This document shows positions 4,761-10,693 of a DNA stretch of 64,000 bases, one piece after another (positions within the stretch are counted from its first letter, which is position 1; each line of letters starts with the position of its first letter). The notes beneath the pieces are model-generated. The model made no database searches. It was not told the DNA's origin and saw nothing but the letters and a program-made list of their open reading frames with translations. Origin of the DNA: a virus. The position numbers were made by a program, and so were the translations under genes. The stretch is from positions 64,001 through 128,000 of the IMG/VR virus record IMGVR_UViG_3300025466_000012. The stretch is one strand, 5' to 3'.

Positions 4761-5107
4761 TGCGCATGAGAGAAATATTTGAGGGCAACGACGTCAGCTC
4801 TCAAAAACTACTGGCCTTGAGTCAGTTCTTGGCTGGTCGAGCCAACGATCAAAATGCCCAAAAACAGATCAGCACTGACGCTTTTATCCAGGCTGCCAAA
4901 AGTCTAGGAGTAGAACTCAATGCCAACAATCTTTCTGATTACCTGCAACAAGAACCGCTCAAGGACATACTTGAGCCCATGGATCCGGGGTCGGATGTGA
5001 TACGTTTTGTTGGCAACCCTGCCGGTGGAGATGTGGGCATGCCGGTAGACCAGGCCCGAGCCGTGGTAGACAAAAACGCCAAGGCAGCTCTAAAAAGACG
5101 CACCTAA
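4760..5107 (+). CDS. hypothetical protein
   Basis: 115 aa; TAATG translational coupling. Confidence 0.65.
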   Translation: MRMREIFEGNDVSSQKLLALSQFLAGRANDQNAQKQISTDAFIQAAKSLGVELNANNLSDYLQQEPLKDILEPMDPGSDVIRFVGNPAGGDVGMPVDQARAVVDKNAKAALKRRT

Positions 5108-5159
5108 ATGGTTGACAATCTGTTATAAGTATACTACACTTATACACTAGGAGTTGACC

Positions 5160-5465
5160 ATGAAAAAACTTATTGCAACAGGTATTCTAACACTCGCTGT
5201 GACCAGTTCACTACCAGCTGAAGCACATTGGCGCAACGGTTGTTGCTATCGCGGTTACAGTGGCTGGGTGGCGCCGGCCTTGATTGGTGGTGTGATCGGT
5301 TACGAACTGTCGAGACCCTATTACTATGCTCCGCCGCCAGTGGTACTAGTTCAACCGCCGGTAGTGGTTCAACAACCGACTCCGGTTGATCCCCCAGGAT
5401 ATCATTGGCAACAGATGACAGATCCACAAACTGGCCAAAGCAAAATGGCCTTGATACCAAACTAA
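5160..5465 (+). CDS. secreted proline-rich protein
   Basis: Signal peptide MKKLIATGILTLAVTSSLPAEA; PPPVV repeats; SD AGGAG; TTGACA-17-TACACT at 5112-5140. Confidence 0.7.
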   Translation: MKKLIATGILTLAVTSSLPAEAHWRNGCCYRGYSGWVAPALIGGVIGYELSRPYYYAPPPVVLVQPPVVVQQPTPVDPPGYHWQQMTDPQTGQSKMALIPN

Positions 5466-5473
5466 AGGAAATT

Positions 5474-6061
5474 ATGAAATCGTTATTGTTAGCATTATTA
5501 GTAGTAACAGGGGCCGCACAAGCTTCTAACAACTGGACCGGACTAGCTGGTCCAGTGACCAATTCCACTGGATTATGCTGGAGAAACAGTGCATGGACAC
5601 CGGCCACAGCCGAAACCAACTGCGACGGAGCCACACAGCCAGCGATCACAAAATCTGCCGAGCCTGTTGTTGTGCCCAAAGTTGAAAAATCAGTCGCAAT
5701 CGTGCAATTGCCTCCAGTGACATATTTGGCACAGTCCTTGTTCGATTTTGACCGTGCCGTGATCAAACCACAAGGTCTTCACACTCTTGATCAATTGGTA
5801 AAACGGTTAAAATCGGTCCATGTTGACAGCGTGATCGTGGTGGGACACACCGACAGTGTGGGCACCGATGCTTACAACATGCGATTGGGGCAACGACGAG
5901 CTCGAGCAGTGGCTGATTATCTGATCGGGCAAGGCATAGAGGCCAATCGTGTGTTTGCTGACAGCAAAGGCGAACGCGAGCCAGCTAGCACCAACAGCAC
6001 AGCATATGGTCGTTCCATGAATCGACGAGTGGTTGTAGAAGTCTACGGAACAGCCGACTGA
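5474..6061 (+). CDS. ompA: OmpA-family outer membrane protein (peptidoglycan-binding C-terminal domain)
   Basis: Signal peptide; betaproteobacterial-type GLCWRN motif; FDFDRAVIK, GHTDSVG..YNMRLGQRRA, NRRVVVEV motifs. Confidence 0.9.
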   Translation: MKSLLLALLVVTGAAQASNNWTGLAGPVTNSTGLCWRNSAWTPATAETNCDGATQPAITKSAEPVVVPKVEKSVAIVQLPPVTYLAQSLFDFDRAVIKPQGLHTLDQLVKRLKSVHVDSVIVVGHTDSVGTDAYNMRLGQRRARAVADYLIGQGIEANRVFADSKGEREPASTNSTAYGRSMNRRVVVEVYGTAD

Positions 6062-6150
6062 TGGCCTATTCAGAAAAGTTACTCGATCATTATGAGAATC
6101 CACGCAATGTGGGTTCTTTTGCCAAAGACGAGGAAGGCATAGGCACCTGA
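6061..6150 (+). pseudogene. iscU: orphaned 5' stub of iscU (29 codons: MAYSEKLLDHYENPRNVGSFAKDEEGIGT*)
   Basis: Translated by hand; matches the N-terminus of IscU and of the ORF at 6816; ATG overlaps the ompA stop (TGATG). Confidence 0.9.
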
Positions 6151-6226
6151 ATTAAAAAACGTGTATAATCTTAATATAGGCATTTATAAATGACCACATA
6201 CAGGTACTCCAAGACTAAATACTTAT

Positions 6227-6826
6227 ATGAAAAGCAAGTATGGTTTAATTAAAAAATGTCTTCATTGTAACCAAGATTTTGAAACAAAACCTAGATACTT
6301 AGAGTATTGTTCAACTCCTTGTAAAAATCCAATCAATCGTCCTGGAAACACTGCTTGGAATAAAGGTATTAAACTTACTAACGAACAAAAGTCTAAATTA
6401 AATATCGAAGGTCTTAAAAAAGGACACGGTTGGAATAAAGGTTTACCAAACAAAAGACAGAGTCAAAAATGGAAAGAAAATAATCCTAATGCAGACGGCA
6501 AATTAAATAATCTAAGAACTAAAAAACCTTGTAACGATGCTCTCAAACTTTATCGAGGAAAAGTTCGTTATGCTACATATAGAACTATTAAAGAAATGAA
6601 AGTTAATAATGAGTGGGTTCCTGTGTTTGGCAAATATAAACATAGTTGGCAAATAGATCATATCATTCCTATAGTTCAAGGGTTTGAATTGGGAATAGAT
6701 CCCTATTTACTTGGTAGTAAAAAAAATATACAATTTATTAAAGGTGAAGAAAACAGATCCAAGTGGGATAGTTTTCAAACTAACGATGTAATAGAGTCAA
6801 TAACAGGAGAAACATATGGCTTATAG
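6227..6826 (+). mobile_element. free-standing HNH homing endonuclease
   Basis: WQIDHIIP...N...EENRSK HNH motif; AWNKG DNA-binding repeats; CxxC pair; AT-rich; own TAAATA at 6216-6221. Confidence 0.8.
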
Positions 6827-8222
6827 TGATGCTGTTTTGGATCATTACGAAAATCCAAGAAATGTGGGATCGTTTAAGAAGGGTGACGAGGGTGTTGGAG
6901 TTGGACTTGTGGGGGCACCTAGTTGTGGAGATGTTTTACAGTTAAGTATAAAGGTAAATGATGTTGGAATTATTACAGACGCCCGGTTTAAAACTTACGG
7001 CTGTTTAACTAGTAATGCTCCTGTTAATACTCCAACCTGCATTAAAAAAATAAAAGATTTAAAAATCGGCGACGAGGTGTTGGCCTGGAACGGTGAAAAA
7101 ATTGTTAATCAAAAAATACAAAATATAATTAAACATTCGGTTGATGTTGATGAGTTGTTGATTATTACTTTTAAACGCGAGACGAGTAGAAAAAATACCA
7201 ATCCTGGCACCTTCTCATTAATTTGCACAAAAGAACATATATTTTGGAATGCCGATAATACACCAGTAGAAGCACAACAACTACAAGTAGGTCAAGAGTT
7301 GTATGAAATAACCGAACACGAGTTACGAATTCTTACAAATAATAGACATCGCACAGAACTCAAACAAAAAAATAGCAATAGAATGAAAGAATGGAATCAA
7401 ATTTTTGATCATTCAGTATTACCACAAAATCAATCCGGGTATGTGTGTAAAGATTTAGAAACCAAAAAGAAAAAATCTAGGATTGCTTCTTTAAAAAATT
7501 GGAAAGATTCTGATTATGTCAAAAAATGGCAACAGGGAATGGCACGAAGAGATTGGTCTAAACCTACTAGTATTGAACAAAAATATATTGATTTATTTGA
7601 AGAAAACAATGTAGCAATAAAATGGAGTGCTGGAAAGATATGGATTCAAACTGATGCAGGACCAGCAAGCCCAGATTTTATTGTTCCTGGTAAGAAAAAA
7701 TGCATAGAAGTGTATACAAAGCGTATGCCCAAATTCATGCAAGATAGGTCAGAAGAATCAAATTATGTAGTGAATCGTCGCAAACAGTTGGCCACAGCCG
7801 GCTACGATTCATTATTTTTAGCAATAGAAGATATTGATAAATCATTGTCAGAAGTGCAAAATTTCATTCATAACGGAATGAAAATTGTAGATGTTTCACC
7901 AATTACTCATTTAAATCAGTTACGCGGTTGTGAAAGAGATGGAAAATCAGTTGTGGTATATGATTTAAAATTAGAGGGTGGAGCTCATGTGTTTTTCTCT
8001 AACAGAGTTGGGTCACATAATTGTGGATCGGCTATTGCATCATCCAGTCTTATCACTGAATGGGTCAAAGGGAAAACACTGGACGAAGCAGGAAGCATTA
8101 AGAACAGCCAAATTGCTGAAGAGTTGGCGCTCCCGCCCGTCAAAATACATTGTAGCATATTGGCAGAATCCGCCATTACAGCGGCAATTGACGACTATAA
8201 GAAAAGACATAACCTAACATAG
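6816..8222 (+). CDS. iscU: Fe-S cluster scaffold IscU interrupted by an intein
   Basis: N-extein to FKTYG (62 aa) plus C-extein CGSAIASSS...LPPVKIHC (66 aa) gives 128-aa IscU with C37, D39, C63, H105, C106. Confidence 0.95.
   Translation: MAYSDAVLDHYENPRNVGSFKKGDEGVGVGLVGAPSCGDVLQLSIKVNDVGIITDARFKTYGCLTSNAPVNTPTCIKKIKDLKIGDEVLAWNGEKIVNQKIQNIIKHSVDVDELLIITFKRETSRKNTNPGTFSLICTKEHIFWNADNTPVEAQQLQVGQELYEITEHELRILTNNRHRTELKQKNSNRMKEWNQIFDHSVLPQNQSGYVCKDLETKKKKSRIASLKNWKDSDYVKKWQQGMARRDWSKPTSIEQKYIDLFEENNVAIKWSAGKIWIQTDAGPASPDFIVPGKKKCIEVYTKRMPKFMQDRSEESNYVVNRRKQLATAGYDSLFLAIEDIDKSLSEVQNFIHNGMKIVDVSPITHLNQLRGCERDGKSVVVYDLKLEGGAHVFFSNRVGSHNCGSAIASSSLITEWVKGKTLDEAGSIKNSQIAEELALPPVKIHCSILAESAITAAIDDYKKRHNLT
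7002..8021 (+). mobile_element. 340-aa intein with Vsr/DUF559-like (PD-(D/E)XK) endonuclease domain
   Basis: Starts C (CLTSN), block B TKEH, block F VYDL, ends HN before +1 Cys; internal PTSIEQ...SPDFIVPGKKKCIEVY. Confidence 0.92.
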
Positions 8223-8248
8223 AACAAATAACTTTGCTAAATAAAGTT

Positions 8249-8995
8249 ATGAATAGGTGTAAATGTGGTTGTGGAATATCACTTAGAAAAGATAATAGAA
8301 CTGGATACCAAAAAGGTCATAAACCATGCCCTATTTGCGGTACACTGATAAAGGGCTCAAGTATAGAGTGCTGTTCAAAATCTTGCTCTGCTAAACTACA
8401 CTGGCAAAGAAATCCAGATATGGCAGAATCTAGAACCTGGAATGCTGAACGATATGCTACTAGAGAACAGAATAGAGATACTTGGGTTAAAAACTTGTCA
8501 AATGCTTGCAAAGGTAGAACTCCTTGGAATAAAGATACGCAAGGATTACAAGTAGCGTGGAATAAAGGGTTACCTGGTAATTTTAAGGGAAAGAGGCACA
8601 GTTCTGATTATATTGAAAAAGTTAAAAAGACCAATCTTGAAAGATATGGTGTAGAAAATGTTGGACATTTTGCTAAAACTTCTCCTCGTAGTAAAAAAGA
8701 AAAATCTCTAGAAACAATTTTAATTGATTATGAGATCAATGTTAAAATTGGAAAATACAAACCAGATTATGTGAATGAATCAACTAAACACATAATAGAA
8801 ATTTATGGTGATTACTGGCATTGTAATCCAAAATTATTCAATAAAGATTTTTATCATCCTCAGCTGAAAAAGACAGCCGAAGAAAAATGGTTATTAGATT
8901 TAACTAGACAACAGTATTTTGAATCTTTAGGATACACAGTAGAAATAATATGGGAAAGCGAATTAGATGATTACCGTAACCGACACGGCCAGTAA
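8249..8995 (+). mobile_element. free-standing Vsr/DUF559-like homing endonuclease
   Basis: Cys-rich N-terminus, PWNK/AWNKG repeats, KPDYV...IIEIYGDYWHCNP; TAAATA at 8238-8243; AT-rich. Confidence 0.8.
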
Positions 8996-9293
8996 AAAGA
9001 TTGCGCAGAATCTCCAACGCCGCGGACACGGTGTGGGTATCCGAGTGGGTGTGCGCACCACTGGGTGTTCGGGCTTGGCCTATGTGTTGGAATATATAGA
9101 TGACATAACCAAGACTTCTGGGGCCATCGATCATGCTCATGACGATTTTGTCATAAGAATAGACCAACGTGATATTGCCTATCTCGAAGGCATGACCATA
9201 GACTATGTGCGTCAAGGACTCAACGAAGGATTTGAATTCGTGAATCCCAACGAACGGGATCGTTGCGGGTGTGGAGAAAGTTTTCGCGTATGA
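8967..9293 (+). CDS. iscA: A-type Fe-S carrier IscA (HesB family)
   Basis: VRTTGCSGLAY and FVNPNERDRCGCGESF motifs. Confidence 0.95.
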   Translation: MITVTDTASKKIAQNLQRRGHGVGIRVGVRTTGCSGLAYVLEYIDDITKTSGAIDHAHDDFVIRIDQRDIAYLEGMTIDYVRQGLNEGFEFVNPNERDRCGCGESFRV

Positions 9294-9958
9294 AAATCTG
9301 CATAGTAGGATTTCCTAGATCTAGAAGTAGTCTTCTTTTAGAAGCTATCGGAAATCATCATGGAATACCTATTTTGGGTCAAGACTTGGAACAGATTGTT
9401 AGCTTACCTAACATAGCCCCACACTCTGAGCAGTACATGAAATTGCTGGCTGGAATACTAACCAAACCGGTTGGAGTAATAAGATTACATCCTGCTCAGC
9501 TTGCATACAAAAAAATCATCTGCGAATTTGACCTGTTTAATTTTGAACAGTACACCCACATCTATCTAACTGCTAGACGGTGTATAGCAGATGCAATCAG
9601 CAGCAATTTGGTAGCCCGCCATCTAAATATGTGGAACTACAATCAAGATAATCCGTCTCTCGAATTTGTGGAGCCTATCGAACTAACCGAGCAATATCAC
9701 AAAGATGTAAAACATTATGTGTATAGCGAGCATATTATGGCCGAATTACAATCGTATTTCTTGAATAAAAATATTAAATTCACACAGTTATACTATGAGG
9801 ATATTCCAGAATTTGTTAGAGACAATCTTGGAAATACCGATGTGTCTCATGTGAAGACCAATTATCAATACAGTACCATAATTAAAAACTACAATAGCAT
9901 AATGCAGTTATACCATATCTACAAAGAACAGTTACAACAGTTGACATTGACGCAGTGA
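9290..9958 (+). CDS. sulfotransferase-like protein
   Basis: IVGFPRSRSSLL resembles the 5'-PSB loop (G.PRSGTS); LYYED motif. Confidence 0.55.
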   Translation: MKICIVGFPRSRSSLLLEAIGNHHGIPILGQDLEQIVSLPNIAPHSEQYMKLLAGILTKPVGVIRLHPAQLAYKKIICEFDLFNFEQYTHIYLTARRCIADAISSNLVARHLNMWNYNQDNPSLEFVEPIELTEQYHKDVKHYVYSEHIMAELQSYFLNKNIKFTQLYYEDIPEFVRDNLGNTDVSHVKTNYQYSTIIKNYNSIMQLYHIYKEQLQQLTLTQ

Positions 9959-9970
9959 TAGTGTTATAAT
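9941..9970 (+). promoter_or_regulatory. sigma70-type promoter, probably leaderless transcript
   Basis: TTGACA-18-TATAAT, ATG 6 nt downstream. Confidence 0.65.
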
Positions 9971-9976
9971 AACACA

Positions 9977-10693
9977 ATGTACAATCCTCGATTCAATTAC
10001 CAACCCATACCCAGAGAAACTGTGGATGGTCGACGCTTGTATGCCACACCCGATGGCGGTCGACTGCCCAGCGTGACTACCATACTGGAGGCCACCAAAC
10101 CTGAAGAGAAACGCCAGGCATTGCAAAACTGGCGCAATCGTGTGGGGCATACACAGGCACAGGCCATCACGACTGAAGCGGCCAATAGAGGCACCAGGAT
10201 GCACAAGTATCTGGAAGATTATACAAAAACAGGTGCCATTGCTGATCCTGGATCCAATCCTTATAGCCAACAAAGCCATACCATGGCACAGACTATTATA
10301 ACAAACGGTCTGTGCCACGTGAGCGAGGTCTGGGGCTATGAGGTTCCGCTGTATTTTCCTGGCATCTATGCCGGAACCACGGATGCCGCTGGTCTACATC
10401 TGTATCAACCGAGCATTCTGGATTACAAGCAGACCAACAAGCCCAAACGACGTGAGTGGATTGAGGACTATTTCTTGCAACTGTGTGCCTACGCCGAAGC
10501 GCACAATGCAGTACATGGCACCGACATACAAAAAGGTGTGGTACTCATGTGTGTCAAACCCGAGATGGATGACCAAGGTAACTTGATCACTCAGCCGCAA
10601 TATCAAGAATTTGTCATTGAGGGCGCCGAGTTTGAACTGTATCGCCAGCTATGGTGGCACAGGGTTGAACAGTACTATCTAGCGAATCACTGA
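9977..10693 (+). CDS. PD-(D/E)XK exonuclease
   Basis: LPSVTTIL, RGTRMH, EVPL...YAGTTD...ILDYKQ, QLCAYA motifs. Confidence 0.85.
   Translation: MYNPRFNYQPIPRETVDGRRLYATPDGGRLPSVTTILEATKPEEKRQALQNWRNRVGHTQAQAITTEAANRGTRMHKYLEDYTKTGAIADPGSNPYSQQSHTMAQTIITNGLCHVSEVWGYEVPLYFPGIYAGTTDAAGLHLYQPSILDYKQTNKPKRREWIEDYFLQLCAYAEAHNAVHGTDIQKGVVLMCVKPEMDDQGNLITQPQYQEFVIEGAEFELYRQLWWHRVEQYYLANH

Follow-up and report, generated by a model that had tools for sequence, protein, structure and literature searches.

What placed the first 29 codons of iscU directly behind ompA, ahead of a nuclease-like gene and a second, complete iscU, is the question raised by a locus in a 64,000-nucleotide stretch of viral DNA, positions 64,001 to 128,000 of the 199.7-kilobase (kb) IMG/VR virus record IMGVR_UViG_3300025466_000012. 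This whole stretch is called the window here, and its positions are counted from its first nucleotide. Reading of the sequence together with the list of open reading frames (ORFs) gave the plus-strand order ompA, 29-codon ORF, HNH-like gene, iscU, Vsr-like gene and iscA between positions 5400 and 9400. An earlier note on the same DNA had proposed that an incoming cassette supplied a new iscU start and displaced the resident gene. Our analysis leads to a related answer: we consider it likely that the 29-codon ORF, called the stub below, is the remaining 5′ end of a resident iscU that predates invasion by a free-standing HNH-like homing endonuclease gene. The features on which this reading depends are the following.

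5474-6061, + strand: ompA-like gene, the resident upstream neighbour (Pfam OmpA, E 5e-21)
6061-6150, + strand: iscU 5′ stub, codons 1-29 and then TGA (Pfam NifU_N, E 4e-6)
6151-6192, + strand: AT-rich spacer, GC content (GC) 0.20, from the stub to the cassette
6193-6226, + strand: left end of the HNH cassette, conserved, with a late-promoter-like TAAATAC directly ahead of the HNH ATG
6227-6826, + strand: free-standing HNH-like gene, 199 amino acids (aa), with its stop codon within iscU codons 3-4
6816-6957, + strand: incoming iscU codons 1 to ~47, the co-conversion tract, assigned by identity to locus L317
6816-8222, + strand: full iscU, 468 codons (Pfam NifU_N, E 2e-46, in two stretches)

The stub ATG and the ompA TGA stop have one base in common (TGATG), and the stub matches positions 1-27 of NifU_N better than the curated cut-off, which bears out the earlier description of an ORF translationally coupled to ompA where iscU should start. 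The HNH gene and, behind it, a full second iscU start were found as described as well. The stub is an undecayed IscU N-terminus. Its 29 codons and those of the new start, 755 nucleotides (nt) apart, share 62% nucleotide and 72% amino-acid identity, with 9 identical codons, 12 synonymous and 8 non-synonymous differences, and the GC at third codon positions (GC3) is 0.45 in the stub versus 0.31 in the new copy of the iscU start. Since the DNA identity is 62% despite the undecayed state of the stub, the two copies are of different origin and do not reflect an old local duplication.

DNA and protein searches of the GenBank phage collection gave no close relative, only distant iscA and ompA matches. 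IMG/VR was queried with iscA, the intein described below, the 199-aa ORF, ompA and the 248-aa Vsr-like ORF, yielding >200 loci (numbered with the prefix L) from freshwater-type metagenomes, onto which the window proteins were mapped. By protein search, L315, L316 and L317 encode an HNH protein 96% identical to that of the window. The similarity of L315 and L316 to the window starts exactly at 6193, 34 nt before the HNH ATG. Compared with L317, identity is 91-100% per 45-nt segment from 6238, where the L317 contig starts, to 6957, beyond which it drops to 76% and then to 62-67% in the C-terminal part of iscU behind the intein (the C-extein). Overall, identity is ~95% over the shared stretch from 6193 to ~6957. 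The upstream genes of L315 are unrelated to those of the window, and L317 is without the intein. As the shared stretch ends at 6193 and ~6957, the unit moving between genomes is the HNH gene plus iscU codons 1 to ~47. The working iscU start of the window belongs to this mobile segment and the stub does not, in line with the proposal that the new start was brought in by a cassette. Flanking iscU sequence is inherited together with the HNH gene, which is the co-conversion that characterizes a free-standing homing endonuclease.

A local tandem duplication of the iscU 5′ end at HNH insertion, with the copies diverging in place, would leave the same 29 codons twice with a nuclease gene in between. 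We regard this as highly improbable: 38% DNA divergence, including 12 synonymous codon changes, would take long to build up, yet the stub has not decayed, and the copies differ in GC3. Moreover, the new copy is 95% identical to the allele of the unrelated genome L317.

Among the fetched loci, the HNH-like gene is present in 35 and absent from 139 that are otherwise syntenic. All 35 have it directly ahead of iscU, overlapping the ATG in the same way (in the window its final 11 bases overlap the start of iscU at 6816), and a DNA alignment revealed that the ~34-nt cassette end upstream of the gene is conserved in every HNH-bearing locus. The usual resting place of the HNH-like gene is just upstream of iscU and not within it. 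The earlier claim that the HNH gene homed into iscU is therefore kept for homing with a divergent allele and corrected for the position: the normal place is upstream of iscU, and the stub would be a by-product of a non-homologous left junction. Most relatives contain one contiguous iscU that ends ~25 nt inside iscA. In L148 and L235, which have an ompA (62% identical) but neither the HNH gene nor a stub, an intact iscU begins 1 nt past the ompA stop; this is the predicted uninvaded architecture, and the contiguous gene that the earlier note expected in relatives lacking the HNH gene.

In 112 distinct loci, the 1.5 kb preceding iscU were searched by motif for orphan iscU starts. Seven of the 25 loci with the HNH gene contain such a start, located upstream of that gene, as opposed to none of the 87 without it (Fisher p 1e-5). 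Stubs in HNH-less relatives, which the earlier note had named as evidence against its reading, were looked for in this census and did not turn up. The orphan starts are 4, 6, 7, 8, 11 and 29 codons long, and the junction is different each time. The stub is not a constant part of the HNH element, being of variable length and missing from 18 of the 25 HNH loci, and the left junction of L315 shows, in place of an iscU stub, a second copy of the 3′ end of its upstream gene. These varied stubs and the L315 duplication indicate that an irregular left junction is a recurrent property of the HNH element. In L145-147, a 7-codon stub is followed only by the last ~35 codons of a decayed HNH gene.

The polarity of the event could also be reversed, so that a lineage with the order p5154-HNH-iscU gained ompA plus 29 donor iscU codons from an ompA-iscU phage and the stub came along as a hitch-hiker. 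Most relatives are indeed without ompA, including L057 and L059, which are closest to the window in the neighbouring p5154 gene (89-91% DNA identity) and whose iscU N-terminal part before the intein (the N-extein) has 89% protein identity to the new allele of the window. We nevertheless consider this scenario unlikely. Six other lineages carry a stub beside the HNH gene with no ompA, and given its absence from all 87 HNH-less loci, stub formation tracks the HNH gene and not ompA. Furthermore, the segment with ~95% identity between unrelated genomes is the HNH gene plus iscU codons 1-47, and the best ompA outside the strain of the window is only 62% identical, which makes the HNH segment the one that moved recently. 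In composition, ompA and the stub also agree with the genome.

Two further strains of the window's phage bear on the question whether the stub is kept as something useful. One, L233 (Ga0316220_1016678), came from a scan of metagenomes for ompA and matches the window with 99.9% identity over 5372-8153 (2.8 kb). L234 is 99.5% identical, and its contig stops inside the stub at window position 6138. The ompA gene is 100% identical in L233 and L234. A stub retained for its ompA-coupled translation, which might feed ribosomes to the HNH gene and iscU or set their expression, or retained as a functional peptide, would be compatible with the proposed origin; the intact state of the stub, its tight coupling to ompA and its identity in two strains from different samples (all 90 nt in L233, up to 6138 in L234) could be taken in its favour. 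We give such a function very little probability, however, because the stubs of relatives vary from 4 to 29 codons and end in arbitrary out-of-frame tails, unexpected for a selected product, and 18 of 25 HNH loci manage without one. Both strains are 99.5-99.9% identical to the window throughout, so the identity of the stub is uninformative on selection.

Several relatives display related arrangements. In L138-L141, a monothiol-glutaredoxin-like ORF ~1 kb upstream of iscU opens with the first nine IscU residues; behind it come an 11-codon stub of iscU, the HNH gene and iscU itself. The iscU start is thus present three times, which suggests repeated insertions at one point. In L318-L321, the HNH gene (77% identical) and its iscU lie on the strand opposite to iscA and the neighbouring genes, and the HNH-iscU pair may move or invert as a two-gene module. 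Just upstream of iscA, L094/L095 and L188 contain short 3′ remnants of a second iscU frame (~13 nt plus the part that overlaps iscA), located after the stop of the working iscU or of the nuclease gene. These remnants are 3′-side counterparts of the window's 5′ stub.

The alleles linked to the HNH gene point to a candidate target site. Every HNH-linked allele examined departs from the family consensus around codons 33-44. At this presumed target the window reads APSCGDVLQLS instead of the usual APACGDVMKLQ, and among substitution-type alleles the window, L315 and L318 have one pattern, with others in L125/L142/L178 and in L137/L138. In further alleles, an insert of 6-10 nt follows the Gly38 codon, which is the case in 20 of 35 HNH loci versus 2 of 139 others (p 7e-15). 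No stub reaches the codon 38 insert point; that of the window, the longest, stops 27 nt short of it, and the co-conversion tract ends ~10 codons beyond it. The Gly38 insert probably marks the nuclease target, with the cut predicted around codons 36-44. Presumably the substitutions in the window's allele would protect it against its own nuclease.

We propose that among the large freshwater phages of this family the HNH gene spreads by intronless homing. During co-infection, the nuclease would cut an HNH-less iscU, probably within codons 36-44, and the break would be resected in both directions. The right-hand end would then invade the donor iscU and copy leftwards through codons ~47 to 1, the HNH gene and ~80 nt upstream. 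As the donor has no counterpart of the upstream ompA, the left side could not be resolved by homology and would be closed by illegitimate joining to the resected recipient end at codon 29. Resident codons 1-29 would thereby be kept as a translationally coupled ORF running into TGA, codons 30 to ~47 would be lost, and the working iscU would begin with the donor 5′ part. Independent entries into the same iscU would account for the intein and, at a later time, for the Vsr-like gene, which brought an iscU 3′ end of its own.

The protein encoded by 6227-6826 has clusters of Cys near its N-terminus, repeats of the WNKG (NUMOD3-like) type and a recognizable D-H...N...N motif; NUMOD3 is matched by 3 of 14 family members, and the Joint Genome Institute (JGI) names some homologues McrA. 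A PDB search with the protein brought up the HNH domain of ZRANB3 at a non-significant E of 0.08. Both the HNH-like and the Vsr-like gene are single copy in the 199.7-kb record. We consider 6227-6826 a putative free-standing HNH-type homing endonuclease gene, both its nuclease fold and its activity being predicted from sequence features.

A number of observations weigh against the proposed origin. The Pfam HNH match of the window protein is below the cut-off (E 0.076), and those of 9 of the 14 family members are all sub-threshold as well (best E 0.012). The family profile found no match in the PDB, and the AlphaFold2 model built from the 14-sequence alignment (predicted local distance difference test, pLDDT, 52) was too poor for use. 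On the DNA side, the nearest match of the stub, 90% over 72 nt, is to the iscU start of L089/L100/L115, a group in which iscU is not beside an ompA. No source for the 42-nt spacer 6151-6192 was detected by short-word BLAST against all loci and the window, which gave chance 12-13-mers only. An exact IMG/VR search with the last 30 nt of the stub gave no match, nor was an HNH-less haplotype of the window's phage found, for which reason the pre-invasion state is deduced from a relative that is 62% identical. Finally, the loci are metagenomic, some of them close kin, and were de-duplicated by sequence and not by phylogeny, so that the Fisher p-values overstate independence.

The spacer contains a 12-nt palindrome with a TATAAAT core as well as a TATAAT box, and a promoter-like site was predicted at 6140-6169; in the promoter and terminator scan, predicted sites of either kind were not enriched over shuffled sequences. 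We infer that the spacer is donor upstream DNA carried in with the cassette.

The inserts after Gly38 deserve attention of their own. Each consists of a stop codon (TGA, TAA or TAG), 0-4 bases and a second Gly codon, after which the normal sequence continues. The fetched loci hold 41 distinct insert alleles with 15 insert variants of 6-10 nt, 38 of the alleles being out of frame, in both shifted phases (examples are L085:3495-3565, L119:3655-3725, L144:2450-2520 and L174:3228-3298, and further L122:5650-5725, L173:3638-3710 and L322/L323). After the second Gly codon the IscU frame is complete in all but four of them, three being cut at contig ends and L174 being halted by a second insert. The mean ratio of non-synonymous to synonymous substitution rates (dN/dS) downstream of the insert is 0.06, to which recombination with intact alleles could contribute. 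A strong hairpin ending at the first Gly codon was predicted in 6 of 6 insert alleles tested (-27 to -31 kcal/mol, z -2.6 to -4.1), and no such hairpin in two normal alleles and the allele of the window (z +0.4 to +1.0). The window's iscU has no insert, and ten further carriers of an insert are without a detectable HNH gene.

A second insert site follows the Pro101 codon. In L174, L179, L181-L186, L188 and L201, inserts of 2-7 nt that begin with a stop, in most cases TAA and then CTA, CTT or CCG, lie there directly ahead of the VKIHC codons. They were found only in alleles preceding a distant Vsr-like gene (33-36% identical), plus L174, where this gene is 65% identical. The Pro101 site is a few bases upstream of the point, at about 8153-8161, where the window and L233 diverge.

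On the simplest single reading of the Gly38 alleles, ribosomes would take off at the first Gly codon and land on the second, in a short hop across a stop that terminates poorly. Three other explanations were discarded: a restart at Met41, as several alleles have Leu there; pseudogenes, as 41 distinct alleles retain the downstream frame; and an alternative genetic code, as all three stop codons and all three phases occur. Natural short stop-hops have been expected but were not known according to a review (PMC5009743), and a preprint calls the gene 60 cassette unique (bioRxiv 10.1101/2022.08.31.505936). It is this T4 gene 60/MobA cassette to which the hop-like inserts of the relatives are comparable. 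With a confidence a little above even, we lean towards the view that the stub is the footprint of a cut by the HNH nuclease and that the iscU 5′ region is the site of an arms race, in which the nuclease may be escaped by substitutions, as in the window, or by inserts that are hopped over, as in relatives.

Short hops, which relatives of the gene apparently use, could invite the idea that the stub is exon 1 of a split iscU, joined to the rest by RNA splicing or long-range ribosomal bypass. This idea has next to no probability in our judgement. An Rfam scan of 5000-10000 at E <= 1 matched no family and no group I intron, and the intron and splicing readings were dropped on these grounds, which leaves the invasion intron-free as the earlier note had it. 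In addition, the downstream gene has a complete start, so that joining would duplicate 29 residues, the intervening 660 nt contain a full protein gene, and reading of the sequence gave no matched landing codon in a sensible position.

Besides the HNH gene, the iscU of the window carries two more elements, listed here with the downstream neighbour.

7002-8021, + strand: intein of 340 aa with splicing motifs, between Gly62 and the cluster-ligand Cys63
8161-8222, + strand: iscU 3′ end (~last 20 codons), imported with the Vsr-like gene according to the comparison with L233
8249-8995, + strand: Vsr-like (PD-(D/E)XK) nuclease gene, 248 aa, profile match to Vsr structures
8967-9293, + strand: iscA, the resident downstream neighbour (Pfam Fe-S_biosyn, E 7e-15)

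The 468 codons of iscU are due to the intein, which separates exteins of 62 and 66 aa (N-extein 6816-7001, C-extein 8022-8219); without its 340 aa, IscU has 128 aa. NifU_N was matched in two pieces also in the search of the window's own genome. The translation contains Cys1 at 7002, TKEH as the TxxH block, a terminal SHN and Cys+1 at 8022, so that an in-frame element with the motifs of an intein is located at a conserved site, although Hint-family Pfam matches remained below threshold. It also contains a central nuclease-like domain, which hhalign aligned only weakly with the Vsr-like family (E 0.02, probability 2%). An intein occupies the same site in 35 relatives, with 62-97% identity and with or without the HNH gene. 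Over the first 59 residues, the window's intein protein is 97% identical to the L148/L235 type, while the exteins of L148 are only ~70% identical in DNA, and the 3′ part of the intein with the C-extein has 91% DNA identity to L116. These matches suggest that the intein homed recently and left conversion tracts of its own, and that the iscU of the window is a mosaic of at least four sources.

The Vsr-like gene is found between iscU and iscA in >25 relatives. The family profile of the 248-aa protein aligns with two Vsr structures, 1cw0 and 1vsr, over the catalytic core (E 0.003-0.006), and the ORF matches a PHROG annotated as homing endonuclease (E 7e-4). A Vsr-type core match and a presence/absence pattern with a converted flank, as described next, are what characterize a Vsr-like homing endonuclease gene. 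Vsr-like or PD-(D/E)XK homing endonucleases (the I-Bth0305I family, the nucleases of 'fractured genes') have reportedly been seen in phage and metagenome data as free-standing genes and within inteins or introns. The product of 8249-8995 resembles them in its match to the Vsr core and in its presence/absence with a co-converted flank.

L233 has the stub, the HNH gene and the intein and is without the Vsr-like gene, ending instead in a native iscU 3′ end that overlaps iscA; therefore, the Vsr-like gene arrived later. Similarity of the two strains is lost at about 8153-8160 and is back at 8964. The window has recently gained the last ~20 iscU codons and the Vsr-like gene by homology on both sides, with replacement of the native end, and iscA is the right-hand homology arm for this cassette. 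Homing is active at the iscU locus, L233 and the window being a natural before/after pair with clean homologous junctions. The last ~9 codons and the stop of the Vsr-like gene coincide with the old iscU frame inside the iscA 5′ end. A 3′ iscU fossil fused to the Vsr-like ORF was considered and rejected: the tail is merely the old frame that overlaps iscA, and the right junction is homologous at the iscA ATG. The HNH gene, the intein and the Vsr-like gene are each present or absent independently of the others, all three in a single small gene.

The base composition of the locus follows these elements. GC is 0.26-0.40 across 6150-8965 versus 0.45-0.58 in the flanks. The resident-like parts have GC3 values of 0.45 in the stub, 0.47 in ompA and 0.48 in iscA, as compared with 0.19 in the HNH gene, 0.28 in iscU codons 1-47, 0.24 in the intein and 0.21 in the Vsr-like gene; the first 46 codons of the C-extein (8022-8159) are resident-like with 0.44. 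The AT-rich block 6150-8970 of the earlier note is as AT-rich as reported there. It is not a single cassette, as the intein and the Vsr-like gene are separate from the HNH segment, and consists of three elements of differing age.

Two observations concern the downstream neighbourhood. Past iscA, the window has an AT-rich ORF at 9263-9958 (GC 0.37, 231 aa) between iscA and an exonuclease gene; in L233 its place is taken by a GC-rich gene containing a GDS(L)-like motif. This ORF gave no Pfam or PHROG match and is absent in L233 and most relatives; it may be another inserted gene. L180 and L205 have no iscU, and in them the p5154 homologue is followed only by the C-terminal third of a Vsr-like gene and next by iscA, as if a deletion had taken out a stretch that included iscU.

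The event proposed for the window has its nearest parallel in mobile endonuclease ORFs (mORFs) of fungal mitochondria, which bring a foreign gene 3′ end and leave the native end as a downstream duplicate (PMC3630166). They were described first in Allomyces macrogynus atp6 and also in Glomus atp6, atp9, cox2 and nad3, Rhizopus atp9 and Mortierella cox2 (PMC3630166). As at the iscU of the window, the invader of a conserved gene is a free-standing endonuclease ORF that needs no intron, a divergent foreign gene end becomes the expressed one, and the native end persists adjacent and unexpressed; the window accordingly contains a foreign inserted and a retained native copy, at the 5′ end. Even the divergence is alike, the inserted and native copies of Glomus atp6 having ~63% DNA identity (PMC3630166) and those of the window 62%. 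The differences are that mORFs act at the 3′ end with the native fragment downstream, while the window has a 5′ replacement with the fossil upstream; that mORF nucleases are of the LAGLIDADG or GIY-YIG type and often fused in frame, while that of the window is HNH-like with its own start; that mORFs are organellar and the window is a phage; and that the duplicate is constant in mORFs but occasional here (7 of 25 loci).

Intronless homing by the Seg and Mob endonucleases of phage T4 is a second parallel, MobA at genes 39/60 being closest, in that a free-standing nuclease (HNH-family in MobA) lies beside its target gene and the break is repaired with co-conversion of the flank. The MobA element swaps 55-75 nt of its target ORF for a homologous region of its own with 67-81% DNA identity (bioRxiv 10.1101/2022.08.31.505936), and its insert protects the target from re-cleavage (bioRxiv 10.1101/2022.08.31.505936; PMC5009743). 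In contrast to the window, where iscU is whole and a dead 5′ copy is left, MobA splits a topoisomerase gene into two expressed genes with no orphan duplicate. The allele of the window has substitutions only and no bypass insert, and the likeness is drawn from the behaviour of the elements. In our literature search, no paper linking phage iscU with homing endonucleases was found.

Taken together, our results suggest that neither an intron nor an intein is needed for a free-standing nuclease gene to replace the start of a conserved phage gene, which it does by bringing its own version of the 5′ end of that gene. The evidence is a defined mobile segment and a before/after comparison at the population level, and the event is the mirror image of the 3′-end replacements in fungal mitochondria. 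In which direction and how far the break was processed can be read from the variable stubs, which also indicate the site of the cut. Annotators may meet short ORFs that repeat a gene start beside a nuclease gene; these would be homing fossils and not genes. If the hop-like reading of the relatives is true, natural short stop-hops would be tied to homing endonucleases, and an expected counterpart of T4 gene 60 that had not previously been found would be at hand. With three selfish elements in a 128-codon gene and hop-like alleles in its relatives, the iscU of this phage family may serve as a compact system for nuclease-target co-evolution and short-range bypass.

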